Positions 2,525 to 54,879 of a stretch of 64,000 nucleotides of DNA are shown one piece after another (the stretch's first letter is position 1; each line of letters starts with the position of its first letter). Origin of the DNA: Catajapyx aquilonaris. Taxonomy: Eukaryota. A program made the translations under genes and the position numbers. Below the pieces are notes generated by a model that was not told the DNA's origin, did no database searches, and worked only from the letters and a program-made list of their open reading frames with translations. The stretch covers positions 1 to 64,000 of the forward strand of contig JYFJ02001220.1 in NCBI GenBank assembly GCA_000934665.2, in the 5' to 3' direction.

Positions 2525-3560
2525 ATGGGGCTGTTCTCACACCTCATTGTCCTATCAGGTCAGTCACTTGCGCTCATCTTTGATTCATCAACCGCCTCTG
2601 AAATATTAGCTCGAATCAGTCACTCAAACCGGATGCTTGCAAAACCTTTCTCGTTTGACAACAATGCGAGGGTTGTGTATTTTTAATGCGTGTGCGTATT
2701 TTTTTTTGCAGTGTGTTGCGTTGTTGGGTTGCACTTGACTGAGGTTGGTACCGAACCGCCTGCCAGCAAGTGCGACGAAATGGAGGAGGTTCGTCTGATT
2801 GATGAGTGGCAACAGTTGCAGTACTTGAAAATGAATTATTGCAGGTAATAACTTACACACACTAAACACTTTCGTTGCTTCAAATACTTGAAAAATATTG
2901 TAATGCCTATGATTGTCCTATAATATTATTGATTTCTCCTTAAGAAATTAATTGCAAAAGTAAATAACAGAGTCGGTTGATATTTAACAGGCTCGCAAGA
3001 TTTCACCATCATACTAATTAGGAGATATTAAGGCTAAATAAACACATTTCCGATGAACCGGTCAGTAAATAAATAGACCGACGCAAAATTCTATAACAAT
3101 ACCTAAAAGCTGAGTACCATTATTAGATATCCCATTATAGAGGCCTTGCACTCCGTTTTTATTCGTTATTTTTCGTATATTTATCAGTCAGTGTCCACTA
3201 CGGAAAATGACGTTTTCTTGTAATTGGTGGTAATGATGGTGTTTTTTTTTCTTCTTTAGCGCTCTTGAAAAGCAACGTTTGTGCTGGAAAGAGGTGGTGA
3301 GTGTAACACCTTTAGGGATCAAGCTCAGAAGACAAGCTCGTGACCAGATGGAAGCGATGACTTCGGATCTAAAGATGGTACCTGATTGTTGACCTTCAGT
3401 ATAATTATTAGTGTTGCGTTACCTGTCGATGAGCATGCGTAAATTTTTCTTACAGTTTAATTGCACAAATTCGGCGTCGTCAACTCAGATGATGTCAATC
3501 CCTGCCATGCTGATGTTATTTCTTCACTCGATTATGTCTGATATAATCTACGATTGCTAG
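2525..3560 (+). CDS. Array gene A: single-domain Cys-helical secretory protein with hydrophobic tail, 129 aa
   Basis: Exons 2525-2558, 2712-2844, 3260-3377, 3456-3560 (phases 1,2,0; GT-AG). MGLFSHLIVLSVCCVVG...SKCDEMEEVRLIDEWQQLQYLKMNYC-SALEKQRL-CWKEVV...DLKM-FNCTNSASSTQMMSIPAMLMLFLHSIMSDIIYDC*. Confidence 0.8.
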
Positions 3561-14568: not shown

Positions 14569-16216
14569 ATGAAGGTCGTCGTCTTGTGCTCTGTATTCCT
14601 GGCTGGTGAGTTGTTCAGTTTCTCGAAATATTATACAGTGATTCGCGTACAGGGTTTCTCACAAAAATACATGTACGTTATATTGATGCACTATTCATTT
14701 AACCCTAAACTGATTTTTGTGTCACCGTTTTGCGTACATGACTTTACCACTGGACAGTGCTTGTCACGAGGTACATTAAACAATGTCTAACTAATTTCAC
14801 CAAAATGTAACCTTCAGCGTCCTTCTTATCCGATTTTCATGTTAATTTGGTAGGCTATTTGATGACTTTAAAGATTGTAACTCAATATTACGCGGAATAT
14901 ACATTGATATTTCGCAGCCAGGTATTGTTAGAATTGTCAATCGACAAGAAATGGCCGTGAAGGCTTCAACATAAAATAGCCTCGAGGGTTTTAGCAAAAA
15001 GACTGCCTTGAAATCTCTATCTCTCTGAAAAAAAGAAATGTGAGAACATCGCGGCCTCGCTATATGGAGAAGAATAGTGCTGGCAACATTTAGCAGAAGT
15101 ATGAAAATGCAACTCATAATTATTTATAGTATAGTGAAATGATAAATATTATCATTGACGAGGGAGTATACAATATGCAACGCTATGAAAAAATGGCATT
15201 CAAAACGACTATAATATTAATAACGACTATGTGGCATCAATCAAAATTGAAGGAAAATCTCTGACACAAGTAATATTGTAATATTATAATAATTGTGTTC
15301 TCGATATTATTCTCAATCAGAAAATGTTCCCTTATTATTGTATCCATTCAACCTGGGTCTAACTCCATTTTTACTAAATGCACTGGTGCTAGTACATTAT
15401 TATGCAGTTTTTTTGTATAGGTTTTAGCACAGAGAATAACCGAAAGGATATAGTGTGAACACTGACCGATTAAATTCCAGTGTGCCACGTCAGCTGGGCC
15501 CAAATGCCCCAGTGTGTTGCTGAAATCCAGAGCAAGATGATGAAAGAGGGTAATGTCGGAGCTTCTCTGGAAGAGCGGTGCAAGTAAGTTGTGTGATGCA
15601 TATCCACACGAAAATTCAATAATTGCATAAGTGAAAACAGATTTAAGTCGAATAACAATAACGGGGACAAACGCTACACACAAAATATAGGAATTCATAT
15701 CGCATTATGCATAATAATTTGCATGCCCCTCGTCTACTTCCGTCAGGTTCGGCAATGAATTACTGGCATGCCTGGAGAACGTGATAAGTGAGGGTTATTT
15801 TCCAGAGGGGATCATGAAGTACTACACGGATCAGGTGGACCAGATGGCATCCCAAATCAGAGTAAGTTATAGTCAATTGGGGGAAACTATGCATTTTTTA
15901 ATTTAATTTTTTTTACATCAGAGGGTAAATAAGAGTCAGCGTGCTATTCCTAGTGCAGTAAATGGTGAATTAGTTATTCAGCGTAAAATTAATGATGAAA
16001 TTCCGCGACATTACAGTGTATTAAACACATATAGTCACAGAATGAAAGATATGCGCTTAAATTATAGCTGGAAAATAACAACTAGACTCAATTTGACCCA
16101 TTCGCAAATTTTGACCCATGAATCCATGATTATTAATTATGATGATATCATCTCCTATGTTCTCTTCTGCACAGGCAAAATGCAGTTCCCAGGAAGAAGA
16201 GTCTCCTGAGAATTAG
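14569..16216 (+). CDS. Array gene D: single-domain paralog of C, truncated before the anchor (secreted), 98 aa
   Basis: Exons 14569-14605 (alternative ATG at 14563), 15481-15583, 15747-15861, 16175-16216. MKVVVLCSVFLAVCHVSWAQMPQCVAEIQSKMMKEGNVGASLEERC-KFGNELLA-CLEN...SQIR-AKCSSQEEESPEN*. Confidence 0.8.
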
Positions 16217-18632: not shown

Positions 18633-19316
18633 TTATGGGCCTAAAATCCTGCCCAATAGTGTCAGCAGACCAATCAGGACAGCGGGGCCCGCAGTCGTAA
18701 GGAGAGTACCTCCGTCGTGCTCGTCCTCGTCGTGTTCATGGGGTTCCTCGTCCTCATACTCGTCTTCATCATGCTCCTCGTGCGCCTCTGTGCCAAACGC
18801 ACAGGCCTCCCTAGCCTGAAACACACCGAATGTCGCATTCAGAAAACCCCAACCATCATCAGACCATTGTTGTCAACAGTCAGAATGCAAGTGATACTGA
18901 CCGCAGCTATGTTTGAGTACTTCTTGTACTCCTCCTGGTACATGTCTTCCGTCATGAAGTCGAGCGTGCCGTCGCCCCTCAAGGTTTTCAAGCACAGAGA
19001 GGTCCGATCAATTTTTCTGCGGTATTTCAGATATCAGATTCGGAGAAGGGGAGAACCAATGTACACGGTGTACTCACATCTGGCAGCGAGCCATCCGGTC
19101 TGTTGGAAGCCGGTCCACGAACTCTTTGAGGCATTTCCTCAGCTTGCGATGCGCAGACTTCTCGTCGTCTCCTTCCGGGTGCTTACTCACGTCAGCGTAA
19201 CACCCTGCTGTGTGTACGGAAGACAACTAATGTATACCGATATAAGAAAAGGAACTCTAGGAATAGGAAAGAGCTGTACCTGCCAAAAGGAAGACCAGCA
19301 AGGCGATGACCCTCAT
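18633..19316 (-). CDS. Array gene F: Cx9C subfamily with His/Asp/Glu stalk, putative GPI-anchored, 153 aa
   Basis: Exons 19316-19280, 19204-19078, 19016-18902, 18815-18633. MRVIALLVFLLAGCYADVSKHPEGDDEKSAHRKLRKCLKEFVDRLPTDRMARC-QIKIDRTSL-CLKTLRGDGTLDFMTEDMYQEEY...AREACAFGTEAHEEHDEDEY...AGPAVLIGLLTLLGRILGP*. Confidence 0.9.
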
Positions 19317-19483
19317 TTTGTCGGACACATCCTTTCCACAACAATCATATTTCGATTCCATGACAGCATATTTTGTTAGGCATATAACAGCTTTTTCATT
19401 CAGCTGCCATTTTCCTGGCTAAACATAAATTTTATTGCCTGAAGGTGCTCCACATTAACTATAGGCGCATGGGTGATTAAATA

Positions 19484-20225
19484 TTACAAAATGTGAGGGG
19501 CAAACACCAACAGCAGGCCAATCAGGGCCATTTGACTCTGTCCTTTAGGGGAAGTCGCGCTATTTTTATCCTTGTCCTTGAGGTCGCCTTCGTCGTAGTC
19601 GTAGTGGTCGTCTTCGTCGTCTTCGTCCTCGTCGTCGGTGTGTACGTGAGGGATGTCGTCGCTGTCACTTGGGTCTAAATACGCATCTTCTTCCTGTGCA
19701 TCAGCCTTCGGGAAGCTCAAGCAGGCCTCGTTTGTCTGGAAGAAAAATTGTTCAATTAACTGCAATTAAGATCGGGTTATCCACTATCAGGTGTAATGTA
19801 GATCTGATAACTGACCGCCAGTTTGTCTGAGTACCTCCTGTACTCCTCCTGGTACTTGTCCTCCGTCATGAAGGCCAGCAGTCCGTTGTCCCTCATTCTT
19901 TTCAAGCATATGCCTGTCCGTTCCATTTTCCTGGTTTCATAATAATATTAATTAAGGTCGGTTTGCTCATGGGTATAAAAACTATGTACTCACATTCGGC
20001 ACCGTGCCATGGGATCTGTTGGAAGCTGGACCGCAAACTCTTTGAGGCATTGACTCAGCCTCAGATTCGCCTTTACCTCGTCGTATCCAGTCGGGTTCTG
20101 GCTCACGTCAGAGTAACACCCTGTAGTCGTTGAGGGCAAGACAAATGTATAAGTTGTTGGATCAATATTGGATGGAAATACTGACCTGCAACCGTGAGGA
20201 CCAAGAGGACGATGATGACCCTCAT
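19484..20225 (-). CDS. Array gene G: Cx9C subfamily with Asp-rich stalk, putative GPI-anchored, 177 aa
   Basis: Exons 20225-20186, 20120-19994, 19930-19816, 19735-19484. MRVIIVLLVLTVAGCYSDVSQ...SQCLKEFAVQLPTDPMARC-RMKMERTGI-CLKRMRDNGLLAFMTEDKYQEEY...NEACLSF...DDEDEDDEDDHYDYDE...QMALIGLLLVFAPHIL*. Close paralog of F, with the same exon 2/3 sizes (127/115). Confidence 0.9.
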
Positions 20226-20326
20226 TTCGACGGACTCTCATTCCATATTTATTGTTGAAGACATAACAATAATATCAGTTTCCTTCAAGCATTACTACGG
20301 TGATGTTTGCAAACAGTCGTTCGAAA

Positions 20327-21442
20327 ATGAAGGTAGCCGTACTCCTGCTGCTCCTGCTAGCAGGTCAGATATTAATTAGAGTAATTAGATATTTTGAGGT
20401 GTTGAGAGTGAAATCAGTGGATACACAATATTTCATGATAGACATATTGAAGAAATTACAGAATGAGCCATTGGATTTGCTAGGCGCGACATTTTCCAAT
20501 GTAATTGATTAAAAAAAATGCATGTCCGTTTTTCCTTTGTATGGAGCACTCTAGAAATGCTCAGTGGGGTCATATTTGCTGGAGAAGGTCATGAACATAT
20601 CAGATGTGACTTAAATCGCAGAAGAGCAAAACAATAGATTCATTGATTATATTGACAACAATGAAAGATTCAGTCAAAGTTTGCTGTGGAAATGGGCGCA
20701 ATGCAGCCCACATGGAGTGCATATTTTTTTAATGAATTTCAAAAATGTTAACCTCCGAGGTCATCCAAAGTGGTCACCAACTGACAAGTGAGTGTAGCAC
20801 ATTACCTGTATATGAATGATTCGTTTTCCAGGTTGCTACGGAGAAGAACAACCGGATGAGTACCTGCCAGACGACGTGAAGGCTGCCCATCAGAACATGC
20901 AGGAGTGTGTCGACAGGAACACCGAACTCACAGTGGACAACCATGTCATGCAGTGCGTGAGGTTAGTATAATGACACCTTCGAAGTGGGGGGAAAGAGCG
21001 TGCAAGTGGCAATGTCCGTGTCTTTTCGCATAGGAAACTGAGGGTGTCAGGGGTGTGCTTCAAGCAGCTGAGAAGGAAGGGCCTGCTGAACTACATGGAC
21101 GAGGATGCCTACCAGTACCAGCTCAGGAGGTTCACAGACGAGAAAAGGGTTAGTATTAGCATGATGTGCTTCAAAATACTGCCTTACTGGATGACTTGGA
21201 CAGTGCAACAGCTTGAGGGTATTACACGCGGTTTGCATACATCACAACATACTTTTTTCACGCAGATTAAGGAAGCTTGCAAGGATTCATCCGTAGACGA
21301 TCAGGAGGATGACAGCGACGCCGACGTCGACAACCAGGCCAATATCGAGGACGTCGTCAAGAAGAATTCCTCGCCAAATGGTCCGGTAGTCCTGATTGGA
21401 CTGGTCGGAGTTTTGGTGCCAATCTGCATTTATCTGGTGTAA
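20327..21442 (+). CDS. Array gene H: Cx9C subfamily with acidic stalk, putative GPI-anchored, 152 aa
   Basis: Exons 20327-20363, 20832-20961, 21034-21148, 21266-21442. MKVAVLLLLLLAGCYGEEQ...QECVDRNTELTVDNHVMQC-VRKLRVSGV-CFKQLRRKGLLNYMDEDAY...IKEACKDSSVDDQEDDSDAD...NGPVVLIGLVGVLVPICIYLV*. Confidence 0.9.
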
Positions 21443-21760
21443 AGAAAATATGATTCCTTTTGTTTTATGACAACGTTGAACTATTCAGGACGTGTAATTC
21501 TTGTGGTGCTAAAAGAAATTCCAAGTAAAGACATGTGTATAGTAAAATAATGTTTTGGAAGTAACAACAGATGGTAACTAAGCAGAAGCAGCATGAGACT
21601 AATAATTGGAATCAGCATACTGTGTTACATGAGGTAGGGACTATGACCTGTCGAATGTTTCGCACAGTTGTGCAGCGTTTCCAGGCAACAATAAATTGCT
21701 AATAATACGATTATGATTTGATTATTGTAATTTTCAGCATATTTGAGGAATTCTCTGACG

Positions 21761-24104
21761 ATGGAGTGTAGGATTATGGCTCTGTTTCTCTTCGTCATTG
21801 GTTGGTGAACATCATTCTGTCATGCCTTATTATTATTATTATTCGCCCTGACGTTATCCATCAGCGTTTACCACCTTTTCAAACAGGGTCCCAGGGAAGT
21901 TACTTCATGTGGCAGGAGAATCCTTTAAGAATCCGGGAGGCGTCGGAAGCCCTGCAAGCATACATAAAGTGCAAGGAAGCCGGACAACGAGGGAAGAGTT
22001 GTCGGGTGTAAGGAAAAAAATATAAGTAGGAGTAAATTAAGCACAATTTAATAAATTATCTATATGAAAGACAATTAAATCGAATCCATCAGACAAGTTT
22101 AACGACGCGATAAGTTTGACTTCATAAAAATTCAGTTCCGCTATCATCTTATAACCAGAAAATTTGTGTTGAAATGATTGTAATTTTTAAACGAGCCGTT
22201 TTTTTTCACGTATAGGTTGCAGTATTATTATGATTGTGATTTGTGACGATTTATCAATTCAGTTTTTTTGGACATCAGGGGAGCCAAGGCGGCGGAAAAA
22301 TGTTTCGTGGACTTGAAGCCAAAAATGTCCTTCATGACTGACGATGTTTACCAAAACAGGCTTAAAGCGATTCAAGAAGCAGCTCACGTAAGTTTAAATC
22401 TACAGCCACACTTTTTGTAACTAAAAGAGACTTGCCACGATGGGATTTATTTTCGAATATAGTTTCGAGTATAGTCCTACGTGGCCTAAAATCCAGGGTG
22501 GTCCTTGTGTTTACAGCAGTATAATAGGAAGGTGTAGCACAGGTCTCGAAAAGAGCGTACCGGTAATGCATAACATAATCATTTTTCATTTTTCATAGGT
22601 TCATAAAGAATGTGTTCAGTGGTCGCAGAAAGATAAGCATATACTGCAGGATCTGATCAAGTTTCATAAATGCATGATCCATTCGGAATTCCCAGAGATC
22701 ACAGACTTGGAAGAACGATGTGAAGAGTAAGAGCGAATTACATTCACATGCACGTATAAAAATGCAGGAAGGTGCAATGATCCACTCTATACATTGCACC
22801 ACCCTGCATGTATCCCTATATCATTCCATTGAAATTCTGACTTCCGCATCAGGGGAACCGCATCGAAGCAGATGTGCCTGGATGACCTGTTCGAGGACAA
22901 ACATATTCACATGATGTCAGAAGAGGAGTACGAGGACGAGATGAAAGAGTACCAGAAGGACAAGGCTCGAGTAAGTTGGCGGATATACCTCACAAGTCGA
23001 CGCATCGTAATTAATTATTGCACTTTAATCTGGTTCCAGTGCAAGGTTTGGGCGGAAGAGAAGCTCAAGTGGGACACGGAAGAAGGACAGCGGAGCATTG
23101 AGGAATGCAAGGGCAAGGAGGCCGAATTTGGGAATATTGTTGACCCTATAGAGCTTTGCGTACGGTATGCAAATTAAGCTGAGATATACTGTAATGTATA
23201 TTGGATTGACCCCCTTCCCTTCCTCTCGCAGAAATGTTTCTGTTCCGGTTATGTGCATGGAAAGGCTGAAGGACGAAGGGCTCCTCTACTTCATGCCCGA
23301 CGAGGAATTCCTAGAGAGGGTGGGGAAACACGAGAATGTTTCCATAGTAAGTTATCAGTCGTGTCAGTGACGTTTATCGGGGAATCAGTCCATATAGAGT
23401 TTCACAATCATTCCAACCTTTTAATTGATCGCTTCTTCAAGTGAGATGTCAACAAACCATTTAAATTTGCATATGAATGTAAGGGGGGAAAATATGAAAT
23501 GTCGACTCAGACTGTTAAGTGCTAATGACTATAATATGCACCGCTGCGTTACAGAAGGAGAAATGCAAACAGTTGCTGTTGAACCGGAGCAGGTCAGAGG
23601 TCCTACAAATCTACGATTGGGACAAGGGCATGAGAGGATGCCTCAGGCATTATCGGAAACACGAGGAGAGCGAGAGGGCTTGCCAGTAAGGCTTCACAGG
23701 ATACTGTTTTTTTTATAACTGCTTGAGAACTGACAACAATTTTTCGATTGTGCCATTTCCTCAGGGAAGCCACGAAATTGAGGGAATGCATGACCGTCGT
23801 TGGGTTTGCACACAACATGACCTTAGACCTTAGACACTCCACTTTTATGAGGAAGGTCCGTAAAAACCGTGTAAGTATGTACAGCACATTCCGAAATAAT
23901 GAAGACGACGCGACGTTCTATAATATTATAGAGTAAGAATTCATGTCCATTTCTGTACATTCTTCACCCGTCGTAAATGTAATCCTCGTTTGTTTTCATT
24001 TGCAGGCGATTAAGTGTGCCGCTTGTGTTGGTCCTACAACGACGCTCTGGATGCTCGCAATTCTGTCCATCACAGTCTCACTCAAATCATGGCTCCAACT
24101 GTAG
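21761..24104 (+). CDS. Array gene I: four tandem Cys-helical domains plus CAAC-type anchor tail, 363 aa, 10 exons
   Basis: Exons 21761-21800, 21887-22007, 22279-22387, 22599-22726, 22853-22970, 23040-23164, 23232-23346, 23555-23685, 23765-23870, 24006-24104 (phases 1 then (2,0)x4; 1092 nt, open). Motifs CRVGAKAAEKC, CEEGTASKQMC, CVRNVSVPVMC, CQEATKLREC. Ends AIKCAACVGPTTTLWMLAILSITVSLKSWLQL*. Confidence 0.85.
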
Positions 24105-25062
24105 CAAGTTATACATATGGCACTGGGTTATAAGTGAAACCAGATTTCGCGTCCTTTACTGCCAGTAACATGACAAGTTTTCCATGGCAGCTAATTCGAC
24201 AACGCTGCGATTACGGGGCATGAATTAACCTTTTATTACATCGTTTATGTTGCCTTACCGGTCATTACTCGGCAGTAATATCTTTTTAAAGGCAGGAGTT
24301 CATTTATAACCGGATGATGTTTTTGAATATTGTAAATATATTGCCGTCCATATAGAACGGTCCCGTTCCTTAATTATCGTGTAAGAGAATATTAGCGTTG
24401 CTGCGTTGCTGTTGATAAGAAGACAATTTCTATAGAAGTATGGGAATAAACTCCCCCCAGTAATTACATACCGGTAATTATAATAAATGACAAAACATGC
24501 ACTTGGTCGATGCCTTCAAAAAGGCGTACTTCATTGCTCTATTGTGCAACACTGTTTCAAGAGTCAAACATAAGTATATTGTTACAGCCCCAGATATATT
24601 CCAGAAAATATGGCCAGGAAATGTTTGTGCCTATGATAAACGAGGCAATAGCTCCTCTCTGATGGTCACAGATATATGGAGAGATTGGACCCATTCCACC
24701 CCCCTTTTTCTCTCTCTCTCTCCTTCTTTTCCTTCCCCCCCCCTCCTTCCCATTCGTCCAAAAGTGTGAGCAAAAAGGAGTCTACTTTTGAGCCGAACGG
24801 CGACAACAAGTCGGGGTAAAGGAAATTGCGCGAGAGAGCCTCTCGAAGCAGGGTATACACTTTGATATATACGGTTTATATGAAGTGAATGGATGCGCGA
24901 TCCCGGCGCCACCAACCTCCTCCTTTTGCCCCCCCCCCCCCCACTTCCTCCCTTAAAAGGAACAAAAAAAACATGGGCGTCGTCGTCGTCAGTCCAAATT
25001 GAGCGCTTTGCAGTAGTTAACAGGCTTCCGCTGTAGTCAGCCAGTTATTTCCTTCGGCAACA

Positions 25063-26517
25063 ATGAAGTCGTCGTTTGGTGCTTGCGTTTTGGCAGGTGG
25101 GTCGCTGTGCACGTGCATTGTTGTGGTTTTTCAAATTTTTTGTGAGAGTAATTTTGGGTTCCACGTGTCTTATTTGCTTTGGGCCGTCTTTTAAAATCTT
25201 GATCGACGTTTTAGTGTCTGTTTATATACCGTAGATATTTGTATCCGGTTAAAGGCTATAGCTGGCGCAGTAGTTTCGTCACTTCCGAAGGGCACAGCAG
25301 GCAGGGTATTGATCTTGTTCTGCTTGGAGTACTGTCGGAGGCGGCAATTGCACCGTGTGGTACCGAGATAATGTTTTTAAATTTCAGTTTTTTAAATTTT
25401 ACCACACTAACGCTATACAATCGCCAATAACTCGTGTAATAACACTGTTCGACAAGGGTATTTTTCTCGGGTTATGATATGTGTTTCAATAAGCCATAGA
25501 AACCAGTGTAATTTTGTAGAACAGTGTAATTTATAAAATCATATTTGCAATGACTTCAATTAAAACTGGTGGCTGATTGAAACAATCCGTACCTTATTTA
25601 TCCCTATAAACTTGGATGTTGAATATAGGCACCATATTTATAGTATAGTGGTCGAAGATGGATGCTAACCGTTCGGAGGGCTGTAAATGATGATGAGGAA
25701 GCTGTCGGAATGGGCTATAAAAATCCTGTTAAGGCCATTGTGAAATTATAGGTTCACGCCTGCATGCCAGATGCCCTAAATACGTACACTGTACTACAAC
25801 AGAATGCATGACCCATTTCAGACCCATATTTAGACTTCATTGGGTCGGCCATCACTTGACGTCTTATTGCTCTTTTTTTTGGTCTCCAACATGTGAACAG
25901 CATGCCTGCTGGGCATGTGCTGGGCGATGGTACCAGAATGCATACAGGAAATGGTCCAAGGAGGACAGAAGATCGCCAGCGCATCGGAAAGCGAGAAAGA
26001 AAAGCTGCAGTGCAAGTACGTTGCACATTCATACGACTAAACGTGCACTAATATTCTTTCATTATAGCCTACATGATTTGAGTATAGAAATTGTACTTAT
26101 GATCTTTTACATACAGTCAGATGCTTCACACTCTTGATTTGGTTTCTTGATAACTTCCAAAACGGCGTCTTTTAGGCGATTTAGGCGTCATTTTAATGTA
26201 ATGATTCCACCTTACAGGTTGTACGACGACACCATTACTTGCTTGAGCAATCCGGACATTCCGGATTTAATACGCAACCAATATAAGGCCAGGCTGGATG
26301 AAGCAAAGAGAGACAAAGTAATAAGTGTTGCTCTGCACAGAGCAGCAATAATTATCTTATTACTCATGATCCTAATAATTATTATTAATGTCTATTTTTT
26401 GTATTTATTTTGCAGGCGGAAAAATGCGCTGCCAGCGTAGGGCCAACTCTTGTTGCCTGGATGATGATCTTGCCAGTTATTTCTGCCATTTTAAGGCAGA
26501 ATCTGCTCGAGATGTGA
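25063..26517 (+). CDS. Array gene J: single-domain, putative GPI-anchored, 116 aa
   Basis: Exons 25063-25096, 25901-26015, 26218-26317, 26416-26517. MKSSFGACVLAACLLGMCWAMVPECIQEMVQGGQKIASASESEKEKLQC-KLYDDTIT-CLSN...KRDK-AEKCAASVGPTLVAWMMILPVISAILRQNLLEM*. Confidence 0.88.
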
Positions 26518-27842
26518 AGGGACCTTTGCTCCAATAATTGTAAACTGTTCACTGCCTTAGACGCAAATAATAATGAGCGTAATGCAGCAACTTTTATTAT
26601 TATTGTAAGCAGTCTTCCAGGCTGTAACTTTATAACTTGATAATTTCCAATCTATGCTGTTCAATAAAATTAGTACAGTTGCATTAGACTGAATTAAGTG
26701 GATAGCTTTTAGGAATAAAAAGAGGAGGTGCACTGGGATGCACTCGCTAAAATAATGTTGGAGTTGTTAATGACATTGATTTATGGTAATTTACTGGCGG
26801 CAATGTCGGTATTTTCATCATTCACTTATCGTGACCGCACACGTCAATTGATCTCAAGAGGACGGTACTGGTTGTAAGAGTATTGTTGCTTTCAAGCAGA
26901 AAATAAAACTGAAGCATACCCATTTAACTATTGATTCTTATGCCGCCATTGTTGGAAATAAGTGTTGTCATTGTGACGTGAGCAGCATTCTCTGGTTGAA
27001 TTGGTGACCTGAACGAATAATAAGAAGTAAAATATTTTGAACTCGGCAGTCGGCAGTCAGGTGAGTCTGACAACAATATGAGAGAGAGCTACGGATGCCA
27101 CCAGTGCCGATATACTGCCGCTATTGTTGAGCACAGCATGTGTCGGATTTAACTTTTGCAGTGGTCACAGCTCTTGCCAGCTGTACCTCCTTTGTATCAA
27201 CACTTGTAGGAGTTTTTTTTAAAAAAAACATTGCACTGCAGCATCATGTCTATCAATCATATACTGAAGCTACAGCAATTTTATTATTCGACTCAAAGAA
27301 AAGGTTACGCAATGACAGAATGAACGTGAGTGCCAGGATGCATGACAGATCAGTAGTGACCCCTGCATCATCCTTGCGGTATTTTGAGAAAACCGCACAC
27401 GTCTCTGAGAAATTCACTTATGTCACTCAGGAACATCCCTCTTGCGTCCTTATAATTATATCTCTTATGTAACCTCCATTCCACAAAATACCCAAAATAC
27501 CCAAAATACCACAAATAATAAACTAATCCAACACTTTTTGCAATAATCTCCCGGATTACGGCGAGTAACATAATCGGAGAATAATTATTCATGACCATGG
27601 GTCTTAGCCGTGAAACATTTTGATAGTTTGTCTCTCTCCGAGCTGCGGCCTACAACAGGCTAAAAATATATTCCTGCAAACCGAAGGCCCACATCATGGA
27701 TATCAGATGAAGAAGGGACATTCCAAAGGCCCTTCCAGGCCCCTCCCTTTTTCCGATTCTCTCCAAGTCAACTTCGTCAGTTTCGCGTTAGTCACCACAT
27801 CAGTTGGATAAAAACAAGCATAGTTACACATCCAGGGGCAGG

Positions 27843-28421
27843 ATGAGAAGGCTCCTACTTTACGCGCTTTTCTTAGCAGGTCAGTATTGCTGGTTGATCA
27901 TCAATATAATTTGTGGTTGGCTCAGAGTGTAATCGCAGAGTGATCATTATTGGCAGTGACCTTCCAATCGGCACCGGCTTTGCCACAAATGGCTGGTGTG
28001 CCACAATGTGTTCATGACATTAAGCATAAAGCCTCATCAACGGATCTCTCCAAGTCGTCCCAAAGCCAGCAGCAAAAGATGGTGTGCCAGTAAGTACATG
28101 AAAAATTATTTCATTGCAAGTTATCAAATTATTCAGACATTCTTCTCGTCGACAGGTTCACCAAAGAACTAATAGATTGCGTGGATAACGCGAAGATGTC
28201 TGCTGAAGTGCGCAAGAGTTTCGCTGCTGAGCTGAGCAATGCAAAGAAAGAATACCATGTCAGTACTGCAATTTAATTTTGTTTATGAATATTAATTTCT
28301 TTGTTTACATTTATGCCTTCCACAGGAAAAGTGCGCCGCTTGCATGGGACCCACCCTGGCTGCTTGGATGATGTTGCTGCCATTGGCTTCCATCCTCAAG
28401 CACAACCTGAGCTTGTTCTAA
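27843..28421 (+). CDS. Array gene K: single-domain, putative GPI-anchored, 122 aa
   Basis: Exons 27843-27879, 27957-28089, 28156-28258, 28326-28421. MRRLLLYALFLAVTFQSAPALPQMAGVPQCVHDIKHKASS...QQQKMVC-QFTKELID-CVDN...KKEYH-EKCAACMGPTLAAWMMLLPLASILKHNLSLF*. Confidence 0.9.
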
Positions 28422-29105
28422 TTGCAATCCAGTATTATTTGCCTCTTTGTACTATACATCCTGCGGGATGGTATGGCCTGATTATCCAACAGATATATAC
28501 ATGAATATGATAGAACCTATAGGTAAAAACATTGTAACTCGATATTTTCTATGTGTATGTGCCGTTTATTTCTGCTATGTCGCTGGACTTCATTTTAGAT
28601 TCCATACCAAGGTAACAGTACAAATTTATATAGTCAGAGCTTGTTTTGTGTTCAGTGCTCTCTCGGCTTTCTGGCTGATACATTTCTTATGGCATTTTGA
28701 TTATTGTGCCGCAAATCTCAACCAGATGACATTTTTTGTTAATTAAATAAATTATGGAATTATTGTCACATTTTATTGCAACCGCTAGAGAGTGTCGGTG
28801 GGTGTCTGCAGAGGGTGAGCCAAACATTCCTGGTGGGAACAGGTGATTGTGAGTGATTCCGATGGCTTCAGGGCCGTCCAAATGTGCTTCTGAACGATAT
28901 GCGGCCGTGGAATATTTTCACTTCTGGGTTAGTACGTCAACCCATGGACCGAACTAGTTAAAAATACACAACTACGTAGGCCTAGGCCAGGGACATTAAA
29001 AACCAGTCGGAGGCTGCGCGCTTTGCCTTCCTCTTTAGTCAGTTCTAACCTAGCCATCGTACTAAGTGGTTTGTTCTCTCTGGGCTTACCACATACATAG
29101 TGAGA

Positions 29106-29891
29106 ATGAAGCCTCTTGTTCTTTGCGTTGCCTTCGTCACAGGTCAGTCTGTCATGATATTTTTTAAAAACACAATCCTGCGTCCCAGAATAAACCCACC
29201 TGTGCTCTGATATTTATAGTTGAGATCAGGTCCTAAAGATGTTAGGCTTCCTGGCCTGACATGCATGATGGAGAATGCAGATCTGATTATTTATTGTCAG
29301 AGTATGGTCATTATTCTGGGATGACTGAATCCATGGTCAGGTTCTTTCTGTACCGGTATATATAATTATATGGAAAATACTAATGCAATAGATTTACTTT
29401 GGCAGTGTGTTTGTTGAGCTCATGTTGGGGGTTCTCGTTCGTCCCCAAGTGCCTGCAGGAAATCCAAGAAAAGGCTGAAAAATTGAAATCGTCCTCTCAC
29501 TTTGAGCAGTTAATGAACGCGTGCAAGTAAGACATTTCGTACTCTTTTTGACAATAGAGTTCGAATACTATTTTGTTTCCGCCCCCCCCCCCCTCTCCTG
29601 TGTATAGGTTCTCCAAAGAGACTATCCATTGCCTAGAAAACACGGGTGAGGTCATTCCTTCGGAGACAGTGCGCCAGCATTACATGGATCAGCTGAAGAG
29701 AATTAAGAAGGAATACCAGGTATAGGCCTATAACTACACATAATTACACGCTTATGACGCCAATAATAATAATGCTAATATTGTGTTATCCACAGGAGAA
29801 ATGCGCCGCCTGCATCGGACCCACGTTGACTGCATGGATGTTACTGCTTCCATTGGCGTCCATTTTAAGGCAGAATATGAACTGGTTCTAA
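29106..29891 (+). CDS. Array gene L: single-domain, putative GPI-anchored, 121 aa
   Basis: Exons 29106-29142, 29406-29526, 29608-29719, 29796-29891. MKPLVLCVAFVTVCLLSSCWGFSFVPKCLQEIQEKAEKLKSSSHFEQLMNAC-KFSKETIH-CLEN...KKEYQ-EKCAACIGPTLTAWMLLLPLASILRQNMNWF*. Confidence 0.9.
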
Positions 29892-31615
29892 TTAACTCGA
29901 ATGTCAATATATCATATTTTTATTTTTAAAATCACATTTTTGACAGGATTGTACAGGCAGAAAATAACAGCACATGACTTGTGCCACTTGTTACTTTGGG
30001 TAAAGTTTATTCAGGTATGGATTCACTTTGGTGTATATGGGTAATAAATCTTTTACACACATGGTTGAAATTATCAATCAAAATGTTGGTGTGGGATTAT
30101 TTCGTGTTAGATTTCTGTCGCAGGAAAGAAATTCAGCTTCATTAATGAAAAAACAAAATGCAGACCTATTTTTCCCAGGTGCATGCTGTAGCCTTCATTA
30201 TGGCATCATGAAGTACAGAATGAGCAAGAACATCCCAGTTTAATTAGTCGCGTGCAGTATGTTATGGTACATTACACAAATGGCAACAGAAAGAGCAGCA
30301 TAAACATGGCTGGAGCAACACCCTTGAGAGTTACGACCTACAAATAAGAAGCTATATTGCGCATCGCCTCATTTGGAAACCACACACTGTGCTGCAAAAA
30401 TCAGTTACACGGAAAGAGTCATTGCTGAATACCGTTCAGCCATTATTTCAGGCCAGAGTTTATGATATGATTGGAAAAAAGCCGTGGCCGTGAGGAAGAT
30501 CTCAACTTGATCCGGGAAATAAATGCCAATGTAAGTAGCCTACCACTTGATAACATCATGGGGAAACTGTTTCGCAAAAAATCGCTATATTATCAAGAGT
30601 GAAACACATTGTGGTATACCGCGATCAAAGCTGGATGCACAAAAGAATGGAGCCGGAAATATTTCATTTCGAAAAAAATGTGACACATTCACCAAACTGG
30701 ATGATAACTTTTAACCTGGCTACCATTATAGAAACCCAACCCATTTTAAATAAAATTAATACATGCTACATGAAATTTAATATTTTAAAATTATTTACTT
30801 CCATGAGGAACTGAAGACGACTTATCAGCAACATATTATGTTTCACTAGTCAGCAGTAGCGAGTATACTATAGCCTACGGTACATCTGCACATCTATACC
30901 CCCCAGGAAGAATGGTGGAAATTACTTGCGAAATATTTATCTTTAAAAAAACAATTAATTTATGACAACAAGTCAAAATATAGACGTCTACAATAATTTA
31001 TTATTTCTTCTCCTGACCTACTGGAAATGAGAAGGTTCTTGACTTGCTCAAACAGTTTCTTGCATGTTGCACATTACCACTGTCAAAATAAACACTTAGG
31101 CTGTTCGGTCCTTTATGGATCAATTACTGCAGAAATGGTATTGCTCGTTATAGAGAAGTTGCTTTTGCGTAGGCCTACGTAAAGAAGCAAGCATGTTATG
31201 CAATGAAGCAGCAGTGACATACAATAATTCATGAGAGTAAGTTTGGAATGTTAATTCCAAATAACATCTGTGCGCAGAGAACTATTCCAGATAGACCGAG
31301 TACTATGAATAAATGTAGGCTATTCAGCCTCAGAATAGCCGCACTGGTATCACAATAATCCCATTGATACTTACAATGTCGATATTGCTGTTGGCCATTG
31401 TGAACGGAAGTACTATTTTACGCCTTAATTCACTATAGACGTGTGCTAGATGGAACGCCCACACTTTTGTCTTGTGCTGCTAATTGCGACTTGGACGCAA
31501 TGTTGGACGGTACCCCACTTGGCTCTCCAACCTGTTTCGAGTGTCAGATTAGTCCAGCTGGGAGATACCTGTACTTCTATTCAGTGCAGCGGTCACTAAT
31601 AATTATCACCTGAGG

Positions 31616-32506
31616 ATGAGACTTCTGGCGTTATTCGCAGCTATCCTGCTTATTGGTGAGCTATATGAATCCGACGTTGATTTAAAGCCTTGTTCTCTCT
31701 GTGCATTGTTCGGTTTCTATGCTGGTACCCAGTGTGTTGGTTTCACCTGAGTTCGGCTCTGGACCTGCCCCTACCAAGATGCCTGACAGATTTGCAACCA
31801 TTGGCGGATAAGTACCCTCGAGACGACATACCACGTCGTTGTGCGTAAGTTCCATGCTTTCTACCGGCATCCCATGAAAGATTCAAGCAAAATAAGAAGA
31901 AAAATAATTCCAAAAATATATATATATAATATATCCTGATTGGTTTGGGGATTTCCACTGTTTCGAGTAAAGTGGAATAATTATTCTAATTCTGTAGGGG
32001 ATGTAGCAATATAAGATGTTACTGACAATCACTCTGCCTTAACATTCCACAGCACAGTAATTGAAGATGGAGTGTTTGCATTCAATTCTTTCAATAATAT
32101 TGTTTAATACCTGCTGTGACGTTTATATATAAAAAGTAATATGTATGTATTGATATAAGTTACGTGCATCCACTTTCCTTTCCAGACTTGCAAGGGAAAC
32201 TGTAATATGCTTGGAGCAGAGCGATAGCACAGAAACACTCAAGACACTCCTGGAAGGTGCCCACGAATTTTTGAATGTAAGTATAGCATCATGCGGAAAC
32301 ATTCAGCAAATAAAATTATTATTTGTTACTAGAGTACAAAATTCGGTATTTCATTTGAGTTCAATTGATGTAAGGAGGTGAGCAAAATAATATTTTTCTC
32401 TTTTAATTTTCAGGAAAAATGCGCAGCTTGCGTCAGTGCCTCTTTCGCTGCCTGGATGATGGTTATACCCATCGTGGCCATGATCAGAAACCTACTCAAC
32501 TTTTAA
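31616..32506 (+). CDS. Array gene M: single-domain, putative GPI-anchored, 111 aa
   Basis: Exons 31616-31655, 31733-31844, 32186-32276, 32414-32506. MRLLALFAAILLIVCWFHLSSALDLPLPRCLTDLQPLADKYPRDDIPRRC-ALARETVI-CLEQ...HEFLN-EKCAACVSASFAAWMMVIPIVAMIRNLLNF*. Confidence 0.9.
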
Positions 32507-37360: not shown

Positions 37361-37421
37361 CCAGGTGGAAGTGTCGTATAGTCACGCGAAAAAAAAAATT
37401 GTCTTCGTTTCCAACTGTGTA
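37361..37421 (+). promoter_or_regulatory. Conserved upstream module of genes O/P/Q (E-box CCAG(A/G)TGG plus GTTTCCAACYGTGTA)
   Basis: The same two motifs occur in the same order before O (37361, 37407), P (39015, 39081) and Q (42176, 42267). The second motif starts 107-118 bp upstream of each ATG. Confidence 0.55.
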
Positions 37422-37521
37422 CAGTAGGCCAGTAAAATTCCGGCCCTGGACACAGGGACATCTTCTCTGGAATAGTGTGCTCTGGTCGTCACCAGCTGAC
37501 TTCAGAACAAAGGGCCTCACC

Positions 37522-39198: not shown

Positions 39199-40193
39199 AT
39201 GAAGCTCCTCTTGAGCTGCACACTCGTATTGGGATTGGCAGGTGAGTTTATCAGTCTGCTGAAAAATTTACCTGGATATTCTCACGTCCCCGCATGACCT
39301 TCTTACATGCAAACGAGATATGACAACACAGCATGTTTTTTTTTCTTGATTTGACTTGGCGCGCGTAAGGCCGCTAAAAATACGTAATAAGGGGTTCACT
39401 GCTTGTATGTTATGATAAAAAATGAGTAGAAATGTGACGAATTAATTTTTGCATTTTTAAATGTGGAAATGTGGTGTCCATATGTGTGTGATTGATTACT
39501 GCTGTCATCTGTTTGCGTCATGCATGTACATAGAAAGGCACTCACAATAATCAGTGATACGTAATCATCGTACTAATCGTTAAAAAATGAAACTGAAACG
39601 GACACCTGAATACTTCAAACTCCACACAAGATTTAATATGTTAAATATTTGGTTACAGATGCTTATAACACCGCAATAGGGCTACTTAGTTTTATAATTT
39701 ACTAATTAACAATGTTGTTCCCCCTGTTTTATTTGCAGCATTTGCGGTGGCCAATTCGTGGTTCCTCTCGGAAAGGTGCGACAAAGAGTTCACCACCCAA
39801 TTGTCGTGGGCCAACCCGAAACCAAAAGAGATTGAGAAAAACAAGGAAATGTATTGCAAGTAAGTCCATTGTTGTTATTCCTATACGTTGACGTTGTTAA
39901 CAGTTCTTGTTGTCCAGGATATTCCAGGACATCTTGACCTGCATCAAAACTGACTTGAATGACATAAATGTGAGATTTAGTAAGAAGAACGTGACTGAGA
40001 GAAAGATGAAGGATTTAACAACAATGGCTGAGGTAAGCAAAAATTATATTTACGGTGTCATCATGTCCATAACATTCTTGTAACTGAATATTGTTACTTG
40101 CAGGTTGTATGCAGCTTCACCTGTGGTGGACCAACACTTTTCATCTCGCTCCTGGCTCTTCCTCTGGCTGTCCTTCTCCGATCCATGAATTAA
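39199..40193 (+). CDS. Array gene P: CDxEF subfamily, putative GPI-anchored, 122 aa
   Basis: Exons 39199-39241, 39739-39859, 39918-40032, 40104-40193. MKLLLSCTLVLGLAAFAVANSWFLSERCDKEFTTQLSWANPKPKEIEKNKEMYC-KIFQDILT-CIKT...TMAE-VVCSFTCGGPTLFISLLALPLAVLLRSMN*. Confidence 0.9.
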
Positions 40194-42373
40194 TATAGCT
40201 CTTATTTAAAACGCCCTCGTGTCATTAGTCTTGTTCGAGTTTTTTTTTACAAGTATAGAGTATTCCGTCATTATTTTAAACCATTGATATGCCAACATTC
40301 AAATTAGTTTGCAAAATTTGCGACACCTGCACTGAAAAATAAGTGCATAAAATATTACTAGAAGCATGAAATTTTGAATAGGCAAATCAAGTTGGCTTAG
40401 TGCGAATAATTTCATATCTAATGCCATTTTGTAATATTTTATTTACACTGCACCAGCTTTATTTGACTATCAAAAATTCATTGAATATTATTAAATTTTA
40501 ATCTGCGAGTCTGGGCCCTATTGATTTCAGACACTAAAATGCATCGAACGTGCCTACATGTCATCGAATTCATCTCACCTTCGACGGTACCTAGTTAGAG
40601 TTTCCTATTGTCAAATAAAGAGTCATTACCTGTTCATCATGCCAGATGCTGGGACCATTGTTGCAGTGTTTCTGCCATGACACGTGTGTGTGCGCGAGAA
40701 AGAGGTAAATCCCGATTGGCTGGCACACACAGCAAGGCCTTTCTAAAACGAGTTGGCATTTTAGAAACAGCTTCTCTTGCAGATAGTATTATTTCCAGTA
40801 ATGCCATGGGCGTGGTTTTGCTCTTTAATTAGTATAGGCTACCAAACCCGTGAAATTTGTCTCTCTAAACTAAGCATAATATTGTTAAATTTTGCTGATG
40901 TGTCGATATGGAATAACTTTTAGAATCGCATATAGCCATAGTGCCTATATCTCCGGTTGCCTGTTATTGTCGTACTTCATTTAGTTGCATTTGTTGTTGG
41001 GTTTGCCAATTAGTGATAATCCAACAAAATAGCAAAAAAAAGTTACACCGAGTGACCATGACGTGAATGCTGGTTAATAGTTTGTATTATGAGGACGAAG
41101 AGGAATAAAATCTTTCTTAATTTCAGTGTTTGTAACATGATGAGTCAACTTGTTGCTAATTATCTTGTGAATACGTCGTAGAAGGGGCTACTAACCATTT
41201 ATCCCTTCGCGGCCCACACTATTTAAGGAAGGTTAATGGTAATGTTATTTTATATTTGTCTTAACTGCGAATGATGAGCACACAATAGGGTGAATTAAAC
41301 CTGGAATAGAATTAAGCAAAATTAAACAGGTAGCTACTGTTTTCTTCATTATTGGTGAAAACAATTATCTTGGGTTACACCAGTGCAGTTAAACCATATG
41401 TCATTAACTCGTAGGCAGTCTTAAAACTCAGAATAAATCTTCAATCGTTAATATTTATTTGAAGGGTGCAATCCGATTTTACGCAAACAATGAGAAATTC
41501 GCAGTTTTCATACGACTTACGATGATGAAACCGGTGCTAAATAATAATTTACGTGACATTTAGAAGAAATTATAATTATTTCAAGAACACATCGAACGTT
41601 ACATTTTGAACCCTTCGACTAACACATTGTAGGCTTCCTGAACCACCATCATGAATTCACACTCAACCAAACCAACTATCTGAGACACTCTTCTGAATAT
41701 ATATCCATTGACATGATAATATTCTTTCGAAAGCCGAGCTGCCATTTATTCACGTCACCACTGCGTGATGCCGCATATTTAATAATAAAACAAAGTCGTC
41801 ACACCGTACGTCCGAATATCATTTATACCTCGAAGGCACAAGCTCACCATAAGTCATCTGCACTTCTTTTCATCAACTATCTGCCTAGTCATTCACTTGG
41901 CAGGGTCGATGCAATTAATGAACTTGTGTGCAGCAAAGTACTGATAACTTTTTATAATTTTTGAGCCATGATCCATATGCAGTAAAATGGAATCTTGGTT
42001 GCAATAATTGTCCATTTTCAAGTCAGTGTATAAGGAAAGTTCAGTCATTGATTGTTTTTTTTTGCTATGGACATGTTGGGATGTAATAATATTGCAATTG
42101 CATAATGATAATATTCATCACCTATGATAACCTTGCGACAGCCGGTTCCATCAGGTTGGAAAGCAACCAAGCCCGCCAGATGGAAACCCCTGCATATTTC
42201 CACCCCCCAGTCCCCTTCCACCTCCCCCCTTTTTTTTTTGCACTGTATGTGTGTCTGTCTGTCTTGGTTTCCAACCGTGTACACACTGGTGCGTGGCCTC
42301 CAGACCTCTCAGAAGCAGCACTTGTGCTTTTGACAAGCGCTTCAACCGTACACACCACAATCAACCAACAGCC

Positions 42374-54561: not shown

Positions 54562-54879
54562 TAAATCAAGTCATCATGATGTACAGCTCTCTCTCTCACA
54601 CACAACACAAAAAAAAAGATTTTAAATAAATTTGTTTCTTATACGTACACATATTTCTTCCGTTCCATCAATATTAATATGTCCACTCGAACCCGACTGG
54701 ACAAAAAAAGGTTCCATCACGTGTAGAACCGGTCCGGTGATGGTGGGTATAAGGCAGTGGATCAGTGGGCCAGCAGGCAACTGGCCCAGTGGATTTTTAG
54801 ACCTCACTGGGATATATGCAGGGTAACCTGGAGAGAGCAGGGTAGTTTTCCTCGTCGCACCCACTCCCGAGCAGCAGCC

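Follow-up and report, generated by a model that had tools for sequence, protein, structure and literature searches.

Organisation of the gene cluster

The window analysed is a stretch of 64,000 nucleotides of the genome of Catajapyx aquilonaris (contig JYFJ02001220.1, positions 1 to 64,000, forward strand). At least 15 paralogues, which encode small secreted proteins with a cysteine framework, were found to form a cluster within its 10.7-44 kb part. The ordinary member of this cluster consists of four exons, namely a signal peptide exon (end phase 1), an a exon (end phase 2), a b exon (end phase 0) and a tail exon. A complete tail is present in 14 of the 15 family genes, the exception being gene D, whose tail exon is truncated and without a hydrophobic end. 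The genes that flank the multi-module gene described here (gene I) are the following:

Gene F, 19316 to 18633, minus strand, a single C-x9-C module
Gene G, 20225 to 19484, minus strand, a single C-x9-C module
Gene H, 20327-21442, plus strand, a single C-x9-C module
Genes J, K, L and M, 25063-32506, plus strand, single-module C-x8-C genes of four exons each with a KCAAC-type tail

From the last cysteine of the a exon to the first cysteine of the b exon, the spacing is 9 in genes F, G and H and in modules 1-3 of gene I, and 8 in module 4 of gene I and in all eleven of the single-module genes A, D, E, J, K, L, M, N, O, P and Q, values that agree with the C-x9-C and C-x8-C assignments given to domains 1-3 and domain 4 in an earlier note on this DNA. 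The b exon cysteine is preceded by exactly seven residues in 18 of 18 modules of the window. The position of the a exon boundary also differs, as it lies 5 nt past the cysteine codon in six of six C-x9-C modules (I1, I2, I3, F, G, H) and 2 nt past it in module 4 and the eleven C-x8-C genes, but in none of the six C-x9-C modules. In the tails of F, G and H an EAC-type motif comes first, then an acidic insert and then a hydrophobic end.

Gene I is situated between H and J and is co-oriented with both, confirming its reported position at the boundary of two subfamilies. F, G and H had been described as its upstream neighbours; of these, H alone shares the orientation of gene I, F and G being on the minus strand.

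Exon structure of gene I

A ten-exon model at 21761-24104 on the plus strand was found to be open, with GT-AG sites at nine of nine introns. Its exons are as follows:

Exon 1, 21761-21800, plus strand, start codon and signal-peptide-like hydrophobic N-terminus, end phase 1
Exon 2 (module 1 a exon), 21887-22007, plus strand, phase 1 to 2, without the first cysteine of the framework, cysteine codon 5 nt before the donor
Exon 3 (module 1 b exon), 22279-22387, plus strand, phase 2 to 0, seven residues then cysteine, acidic motif of the F/G/H class
Exon 4 (module 2 a exon), 22599-22726, plus strand, phase 0 to 2, module cysteine spacings 19, 15 and 9
Exon 5 (module 2 b exon), 22853-22970, plus strand, phase 2 to 0, acidic motif present
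Exon 6 (module 3 a exon), 23040-23164, plus strand, phase 0 to 2, first cysteine codon at the exon start, cysteine spacings 21, 16 and 9
Exon 7 (module 3 b exon), 23232-23346, plus strand, phase 2 to 0, acidic motif, module closest to F/G/H
Exon 8 (module 4 a exon), 23555-23685, plus strand, phase 0 to 2, cysteine spacings 24 and 13, cysteine codon 2 nt before the donor
Exon 9 (module 4 b exon), 23765-23870, plus strand, phase 2 to 0, seven residues then cysteine, acidic motif not clear
Exon 10 (tail exon), 24006-24104, plus strand, KCAAC-type motif, small residues, C-terminal hydrophobic stretch (putative GPI-attachment signal), stop codon

The open frame comprises 1092 nt, corresponding to 363 amino acids plus a stop codon. 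Exon 1 ends in phase 1 and the a/b pairs that follow end in phases 2 and 0 four times over, as had been noted earlier. The reading frame does not require module 4, with exon 7 ending and the tail exon starting in phase 0.

As the a/b pair is present four times, between the signal-peptide exon and the hydrophobic KCAAC-type tail exon, gene I encodes a protein of four modules of approximately 80 amino acids each. The modules measure 230, 246, 240 and 237 nt. The symmetry previously ascribed to all of them applies to modules 2-4, which are 0-0 units (246, 240 and 237 nt), but not to module 1 (230 nt), which is asymmetric because it runs from phase 1 to phase 0. Judged from these phases, frame-preserving skipping would be possible for modules 2-4 only.

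Evidence for a probable single gene with old duplications

Gene I is likely to be a real single gene, encoding a four-module protein of 363 amino acids with a signal peptide and a tail, within a tandem cluster of its paralogues. The family signal-exon profile matched exon 1 at 21770-21799 with 9.5 bits, similar to the scores of H (9.4) and F (9.7). Codon usage was assessed using a model trained on the other 12 genes (only 1642 training counts, all from paralogues). The log-odds were positive in the true frame and above both other frames for all ten exons of gene I, and negative in 27 of 27 of its intron frames. Exon 1 scored 0.286 and the module 1 a exon 0.236, the latter not being matched by the F/G/H-type a-exon profile. 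The module 2 a exon scored 0.140, above the null 95th percentile (-0.038) and below the null maximum (0.161).

The introns of gene I were found by profile search to contain no signal-peptide-like or tail-like exon, which agrees with the earlier reading of the region as one multi-module gene. A division into two genes was also considered, in which an upstream gene would comprise the signal peptide and modules 1-3, ending at a stop after seven read-through codons in intron 7, with a downstream gene starting at an ATG at 23525 and comprising module 4 and the tail. The frame ahead of exon 8 is open from 23519, this ATG is in frame and is followed by about eight mostly hydrophobic residues, and exon 7 read into the intron does reach a stop after seven codons. 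However, the family signal-exon profile, which matches 13 of 13 modelled genes, misses this start at E<=5, and every other member examined has its signal sequence on an exon of its own that ends in phase 1. Exon 8 has a usable acceptor, intron 7 is non-coding in each of the three frames by codon usage (-0.51 to -0.89), and the upstream product would be without a tail, unlike 14 of the 15 family genes (the exception being D with its truncated tail exon). Two separate genes are thus considered very unlikely.

An equally improbable arrangement is one in which exons 8 and 9 are decaying or optional and the main product is a three-module protein, made by splicing exon 7 to the tail exon. This join stays in frame (phase 0 to 0), and module 4 is the most diverged of the modules, with an end branch of 3.0-4.1. 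Against this, both exons are open with GT-AG sites and keep all four framework cysteines at family positions, and their codon log-odds (0.549 for exon 8 and 0.182 for exon 9) exceed all 200 null windows, which reach at most 0.161. The strict exon-boundary hallmark of module 4 is expected to occur by chance approximately 0.13 times in the 659-nt interval, based on a rate of 21 outside matches in 110,365 nt. This strict scan replaced a loose exon-pair scan, which returned 2064 candidates and was dropped as uninformative.

Comparison of the region 21500-24600 to the window using blastn gave no match to a paralogue (best off-diagonal E 0.17), and no repeat was found within gene I with TRF. As no DNA similarity to any paralogue is left, the duplication events are all old.

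Modules 1-3

Modules 1-3 can be assigned on sequence grounds to the F/G/H (C-x9-C) class. When a profile was made from F, G and H alone, module 3 scored 27.7 bits, module 2 18.5 and module 1 14.0 (E 1.5e-10 to 2.7e-6, Z=1), the ten remaining rows all scoring 5.5 bits or less. Leave-one-out hhalign comparison to the C-x9-C set gave 96% for module 3, 87% for module 2 and 69% for module 1. In pairwise comparison module 3 reached Z values of 11.1-14.2 to F/G/H, these genes being most similar to this phase-0 module and least similar to module 1. A clade of F, G, H and modules 1-3 was recovered in the per-domain tree with a support of 95/98, which, along with the profile and hhalign results, is the grouping that had been predicted for these three modules.

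The acidic motifs FMTDDVY, MMSEEEY and FMPDEEF reported earlier were found in the b exons of modules 1-3, with related motifs in F, G and H. Also common to these modules and genes are the cysteine framework, the boundary 5 nt past the cysteine codon and the seven-residue lead of the b exon. Gene I differs from F, G and H in having four modules rather than one, in the phase 0 start of its internal a exons and in its tail, a KCAAC-type one that has no acidic insert.

The tail exon and module 4

A profile of C-x8-C tails (A, J, K, L, M, N, O and P, with gene I left out) matched the tail of gene I at 28.0 bits (E 1.6e-7 among 2430 six-frame segments), while the tails of F and G scored 1.1 and -3.1 bits and that of H was not listed. 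The gene I tail starts with a KCAAC-type motif as in A, K, L and M, with J having a one-residue variant. The attribution of its KCAACVGPT sequence to the downstream type was thereby upheld, this being a tail type that gene I has in common with the C-x8-C genes (A, D, E, J-Q).

By its exon boundaries, cysteine framework and codon usage, module 4 is a true family module, with all four framework cysteines kept at family positions, but its sequence is too diverged for assignment to either class. Pairwise comparison of its body gave a best Z of 2.5 overall and at most 1.8 to C-x8-C genes. The body scored below 4 bits on both subfamily profiles, its 3.7 bits on the C-x8-C profile equalling the score of F, G and H there. 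With hhalign it remained below 0.5% for both sets (0.26% for C-x8-C), although gene E, a clear C-x8-C member, also fails this comparison (0.7-0.9%). The per-exon profiles of the two subfamilies gave no match at E<=5 to either the a or the b exon of module 4.

One discrete trait ties module 4 to the C-x8-C genes, namely an a exon that ends two bases past the cysteine codon, and the exon end phases (2 and 0) are also common to both. They differ in the cysteine spacing of the a exon and in its start, as that of module 4 begins in phase 0, three codons before the first cysteine, whereas C-x8-C a exons start in phase 1, and similarity of the body was not detectable.

Module 4 was placed beside L in a tree of 16 rows (support 44/65) and beside module 1 in a free tree of 18 rows, to which D and Q had been added (support 79/37), its end branch having a length of 3.0-4.1. 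None of the arrangements examined with AU tests was rejected: module 4 with J/K/L gave p 0.606, module 4 with F/G/H and modules 1-3 p 0.228, and a clade of all four modules of gene I p 0.178 and 0.217. The prediction that module 4 would group with the C-x8-C genes was not borne out, as its body is not significantly similar to either subfamily and its position in the tree is unstable. Grouping of all four domains together had been named as an outcome that would speak against a chimera; competing groupings also pass, yet the all-four clade is still compatible with the data because no arrangement is rejected by the AU tests.

Origin of the subfamily mixture

Gene I mixes traits of two subfamilies, with modules 1-3 of the F/G/H class and a tail of the KCAAC class. 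Out-of-register fusion with a downstream C-x8-C gene, and retention of the tail and 8-spacing of the family, are about equally probable explanations of this. Fusion of adjacent genes by unequal crossing-over had been proposed earlier. The tail type and the gene order fit this proposal, but the body of module 4 is like neither subfamily. Crossing-over at homologous positions keeps the number of modules, so that an added module needs an out-of-register join from a phase-0 intron to a phase-1 intron, along with a new acceptor.

It is conceivable, though short of probable, that a C-x9-C gene with several modules acquired the a, b and tail exons of an adjacent C-x8-C gene, its own tail exon, the intervening spacer and the signal exon of the downstream gene being lost at the junction. 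The J-M lineage would then be the source of module 4 and of the tail. This is consistent with the end of the module 4 a exon at the cysteine codon plus 2 nt (as in eleven of eleven C-x8-C genes and none of six C-x9-C modules), with a tail that is significantly of C-x8-C type where those of F, G and H are not, and with the position of gene I between H and J, all in one orientation. In the best-likelihood trees, too, module 4 falls not within the C-x9-C clade but next to L or J/K/L, with a likelihood advantage of 2.35 lnL for 16 rows and 0.97 for 18 rows. However, the support for this placement is 44/65, it flips to module 1 once D and Q are added, and none of the groupings is rejected by AU test (p 0.18-0.61). 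Module 4 has a body unlike that of C-x8-C genes (Z <=1.8, 3.7 bits, hhalign 0.26%), and in its cysteine spacings (24 and 13) it comes closer to F/G/H (22-23 and 15) than to C-x8-C members (9-14 then 18-21, or 22-25 alone). A phase-0 intron would have to be joined to a phase-1 intron with a new acceptor, and no DNA trace of such a join was found with blastn within the window.

Just as tentatively, the 8-spacing and the KCAAC tail may be ancestral and gene I may have grown as its exon pair was duplicated internally. The old state would have persisted in the last module and in the tail, while the upstream copies gained one codon where the a exon ends, together with the acidic motif, and F, G and H would come from that upstream lineage, their tails being the same exon with an acidic insert. 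In all genes, F, G and H included, the tail exon opens in phase 0 with a cysteine-containing motif in the same position, and a long insert in the tail exon of gene E indicates that such inserts occur. Among the C-x8-C genes, KCAAC-type tails are scattered over the tree (A; J, K, L; M), modules 2-4 have the phase-0 starts and lengths divisible by three expected of copies of one internal module, and a clade of all four modules is not rejected (p 0.178, 0.217). On the other hand, the tree is unrooted, so that the ancestral states are assumed, and the tails of F, G and H do not score on the tail profile. The a exons of F, G and H are in phase 1, and yet module 3, which starts in phase 0, is the one that these genes resemble most, and module 1 the one that they resemble least; extra steps are thus needed under growth by internal duplication as well.

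Predicted product and significance

The product of gene I is most likely a secreted, membrane-tethered protein of four old, diverged, small cysteine-framed modules. By eye, the two ends resemble the layout expected of a GPI-anchored protein (an N-terminal signal peptide, and a C-terminal signal of small residues, a short spacer and a hydrophobic stretch), although the tail may instead be a short membrane anchor. The protein would enter the secretory pathway by way of the signal peptide, judged by eye, after which the tail (small residues and a hydrophobic C-terminus of 13-17 residues) may be replaced by a GPI anchor or may itself keep it membrane-bound. The four modules, braced by disulfides and probably helical, could then be displayed on the surface of the cell or cuticle.

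A more far-reaching reading, which we regard as unlikely, is that of a surface-coat family restricted to one lineage and lacking detectable relatives, in which multi-module proteins are assembled by transfer of two-exon modules between neighbouring genes of different subfamilies, gene I being a record of this process. If its 0-0 modules were skipped in splicing, this one locus would yield anchored isoforms of one to four modules.

If confirmed by cDNA, gene I would provide a clean, small case of domain accretion within a tandem family of secreted proteins that evolves rapidly. In it, a module made of two exons would be present in four copies, with the change of phase that made the copies symmetric, and the subfamily mosaic of the gene could be dated and polarised by comparison with sister genomes. 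It also carries a warning for annotation, since the large public protein sets searched gave no matching protein: automated gene finders may split or miss genes of this kind. Gene I is nevertheless a matter of ordinary family evolution; exon duplication and possibly fusion are well-known mechanisms, and no long-standing question is opened by it.

Comparison with known families and systems

Searches for homologues outside the window used single exons or frames that include translated introns as queries and are weak tests for this reason. The 114-residue frame at 22833-23174 (exon 5, the stop-free intron 5 and exon 6) gave no match at E<=0.001 with phmmer among 1.84 billion representatives, and none in a word-indexed search restricted to longer proteins. 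Profiles of nine tail frames and of six b-exon frames had no outside match at E<=1. A search of PDB sequences returned best E values of 0.14 and 0.93, which are at noise level, the best ESM Atlas score (0.88, recognition 1813) was below the usable range, and Rfam gave no matches. No such family was found in a full-text literature search, a survey too thin for the family to be called unpublished.

Comparison of the family to Pfam had low sensitivity because single exons were scanned. Among 148 stop-free frames of at least 78 amino acids, only DUF19 (PF01579) was found above the cut-off, at 48384-48761 in the same window (E 8e-6, 26.2 bits, cut-off 23.2). Nothing exceeded the threshold among 45 family exons, with none of the 45 matching DUF19 at E<=0.1. 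Nine selected frames scanned at E<=10 likewise gave nothing for the family, the module 4 exons and three other a exons being without DUF19.

DUF19 is a cysteine-rich domain of secreted proteins that is not otherwise known outside nematodes. The DUF19 gene resembles the family in having a similar signal exon near 46855 and, in its first exon pair, a cysteine codon plus 2 nt, an intron, seven residues and a cysteine (48127/48292). This common exon hallmark raised the possibility of a relationship, which was supported neither by the family a-exon profile, which does not match the DUF19 gene, nor by the Pfam scans, in which no family exon, nor the upstream exons of the DUF19 gene itself, matched any model above threshold.

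Twin C-x9-C (CHCH) proteins have two C-x9-C motifs, form a helical hairpin and are without a signal peptide. Gene I was rejected as a member of this group, as two gaps of nine occur in module 1 only, with one in modules 2 and 3 and none in module 4, and as it has a signal-peptide-like exon and no Pfam match.

Haemoglobin Lepore is the textbook case of a fusion gene arising from unequal crossing-over in a tandem family. A fusion origin of gene I would be similar in that co-oriented, adjacent paralogues recombine into a gene with parts of both. However, Lepore-type hybrids keep the exon number of their parents, whereas gene I would have gained a module through an out-of-register join of introns of different phase, and the trace of recombination is absent in gene I.

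Mosaic extracellular proteins are built of phase-symmetric exon modules, in line with the exon-shuffling rule. Modules 2-4 of gene I are similar to these, being 0-0 units that can be duplicated or skipped in frame. The gene I module differs in consisting of two exons split by a phase-2 intron, and module 1 differs in being a 1-0 unit.

Structure of gene I

Joining of the ten exons of gene I yielded an open reading frame of 1092 nt (363 codons and a stop), with GT-AG borders at all nine introns. The signal exon ends in phase 1, each of the four exon pairs that follow ends in phases 2 and 0 (exons a and b, together a module; I1 to I4), and the last exon begins in phase 0. The DNA of the window is eukaryotic in character, with short introns and a G+C content of approximately 41%. 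A codon log-odds model, trained on the 12 other modelled genes of the family against their introns, was positive and best in the true frame for all ten exons, with all 27 intron frames being negative. Eight exons exceeded the maximum (0.161) of a null of 200 non-coding windows, with exons 4 (0.140) and 10 (0.038) lying above its 95th percentile only. The open frame, splice sites and codon usage thus bear out the four repeats of a phase 2, phase 0 exon pair proposed in the earlier note.

Profiles of the family signal and tail exons found no match within the introns of gene I, so that hidden gene ends have no place there; one of the introns between modules measures only 69 nt. Division into two genes within intron 7 is improbable. 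The second gene could begin at an in-frame ATG (23525) upstream of exon 8, and translation continued past the end of exon 7 reaches a stop after seven codons, but a start at 23525 has no resemblance to a family signal exon and intron 7 appears non-coding by codon usage.

The gene family and its two subfamilies

Thirteen genes of the tandem array were fully modelled (A, E, F, G, H, I, J, K, L, M, N, O and P), with two further genes, D and Q, modelled at module level. All single-module genes consist of four exons with end phases of 1, 2 and 0, and exactly seven residues precede the cysteine of exon b in 18 of 18 modules. What separates the subfamilies is the end of exon a. In F, G, H and I1 to I3, 5 nt follow the cysteine codon, giving C-x9-C; in I4 and the 11 remaining genes, 2 nt follow it, giving C-x8-C. 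Further members and a candidate module are as follows.

14569-16216, plus strand: gene D, whose tail exon stops early without a hydrophobic stretch
39199-40193, plus strand: gene Q, near O and P; it has a separate signal-like exon (near 39199), and its tail lies at 40104-40193
2767-3377: possible extra C-x8-C module found by the hallmark scan; its exons would end at 2844 and 3260

Gene D may encode a secreted product without an anchor, or it may be a copy in decay. The description of F, G and H as upstream neighbours in the array needs qualifying, as F and G are on the minus strand, with H and all other family genes on the plus strand. In the stretch that contains these three genes (18633-21442), F and G run in the opposite direction to all other genes of the array. 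G and H diverge from start codons at 20225 (minus) and 20327 (plus), 101 nt apart, which suggests a shared promoter region. Separately, a 24-nt match of 92% identity (42260-42283 and 37400-37423), situated approximately 100 nt before the start codon in each of P and O, may be a promoter element common to both paralogues.

Modules 1 to 3 and the tail exon

Local alignment scores against shuffles, expressed as Z, were 11.1-14.2 for I3 and 4.0-5.7 for I1 against F, G and H, with I2 scoring 10.6 (F), 6.9 (G) and 3.5 (H). Against a profile restricted to F, G and H, I3 scored 27.7 bits, I2 18.5 and I1 14.0, every other row reaching at most 5.5. Leave-one-out hhalign gave 96%, 87% and 69%, respectively, against the C-x9-C set and no more than 4% for any of the three against the C-x8-C set. 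F, G, H and I1 to I3 were separated from all other rows of a 16-row maximum-likelihood tree by a branch with support of 95/98. The match of these modules to F, G and H was therefore confirmed. Regarding their inner order, AU tests rejected neither an F+G+H clade (p = 0.266) nor an I1+I2+I3 clade (p = 0.269 and 0.423). The likeness of module 1 rests with the b exon, the a exon being without the first cysteine and having no match with the a-exon profile.

The tail exon of gene I (24006-24104) was compared to a profile of the A, J, K, L, M, N, O and P tails, searched against 2430 six-frame segments. Its frame scored 28.0 bits (E = 1.6e-7), level with that of Q (28.4 bits); gene I and Q had both been left out of the profile. 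Its assignment to the C-x8-C type stands. No such match was seen for the F, G and H tails (F 1.1 bits, G -3.1 bits, H unlisted).

18636-18815, minus strand: tail exon of F
19487-19735, minus strand: tail exon of G
21266-21439, plus strand: tail exon of H

These three carry long Asp/Glu/His-rich inserts ahead of the hydrophobic end, that of G including a (TCG)16 repeat (19590-19637). They are taken to be the same exon as the others in modified form, since they share its phase, the position of the cysteine motif and, after the acidic insert, a similar hydrophobic end. The inserts could form an acidic or metal-binding stalk.

Module 4

Module 4 (exons 8 and 9; 23555-23685 and 23765-23870) is a family module, as it has four cysteines in the family arrangement, a last cysteine of exon a exactly 2 nt before the donor, seven residues ahead of the cysteine of exon b, the family phases and codon log-odds of 0.549 and 0.182. 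A strict scan for the boundary hallmark recovered it along with all 11 C-x8-C genes; 21 pairs in 110,365 nt outside the family genes, some of which fall in other cysteine-rich genes, give a chance expectation of approximately 0.13 in the 659-nt interval. Skipping of module 4 would keep the reading frame, though a three-module protein is unlikely to be the main product.

On the comparisons made, the body of module 4 resembles nothing else. Its best pairwise Z values were 2.5 (F) and 1.8 (K), and the F/G/H profile gave it 2.7 bits and the C-x8-C profile 3.7, the latter being the same as F, G and H obtain there. No match to the four per-exon profiles was found at E<=5, and hhalign gave 0.46% and 0.26%; gene E, a clear C-x8-C gene that served to gauge the power of this test, also fails it (0.7-0.9%). 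Its cysteine spacings (24, 13) are nearer those of F, G and H (22-23, 15) than those of the C-x8-C genes. The 16-row tree placed module 4 beside L (support 44/65, branch length 4.09); with D and Q added, a free search placed it beside I1 (79/37), while holding it with J/K/L was better by 0.97 log-likelihood units. AU tests rejected neither grouping with F/G/H and I1 to I3 (p = 0.228), nor all four gene I modules together (p = 0.178 and 0.217), nor grouping with J/K/L (p = 0.606). Of the claim that domain 4 belongs with the C-x8-C genes, the end of exon a and the type of the tail are borne out; the low body score and shifting placement do not uphold the grouping itself.

Origin of gene I

No nucleotide similarity was found between gene I and any paralogue or among its own modules (blastn, best off-diagonal E 0.17), and TRF reported nothing within the gene, from which it follows that all events in its history are old. 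Modules 2, 3 and 4 (246, 240 and 237 nt) run from phase 0 to phase 0 and are symmetric as had been claimed, but module 1 is not: its 230 nt begin in phase 1 and end in phase 0, so a plain tandem copy would break the frame. The first cysteine codon is preceded by 12, 0 and 9 nt in modules 2, 3 and 4 rather than by 2 nt. Given these differences between module 1 and the others, at least one acceptor shift is needed by any route.

The earlier note had proposed a four-domain chimera built by exon-pair duplication and fusion of adjacent genes through unequal crossing-over. This interpretation is partly supported. The subfamily mosaic is real for modules 1 to 3 and the tail; the comparisons establish neither a subfamily for module 4 nor fusion as the mechanism. 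The module and tail of the next C-x8-C gene may have been joined onto a multi-module C-x9-C gene, but this would bring together introns of phase 0 and phase 1 and likewise need an acceptor shift, and unequal crossing-over at homologous positions would add no module. About equally probable is that module 4 and the tail keep the ancestral family state, with no fusion. Both predict module 4 outside the C-x9-C clade, differing only in its nesting within J/K/L.

Predicted product and comparison with known families

The predicted protein begins with a signal-peptide-like stretch. Its four cysteine-braced modules contain many charged and helix-favouring residues, N-x-S/T sites occur several times in modules 3 and 4, and the tail has the look typical of a GPI-attachment signal; in combination, these features suggest a surface-displayed protein. 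Outside sequence, profile, Pfam, PDB and Atlas searches gave nothing usable for the family, and the literature listings searched held no entry relevant to it. The longest stop-free frame in the window (54727-55491, 255 aa) has a signal-peptide-like start and no Pfam match.

The sole Pfam family above its cut-off in the window was DUF19 (48384-48761, E = 8e-6, 26.2 bits against a cut-off of 23.2), a nematode family. Sequence tests gave no support for a relation between DUF19 and the small family. The DUF19 gene (46855-48761) has a similar signal exon, and its first exon pair (48127/48292) displays the boundary hallmark of the family, namely a cysteine codon and 2 nt, an intron, seven residues and a cysteine, hinting that the two could be related.
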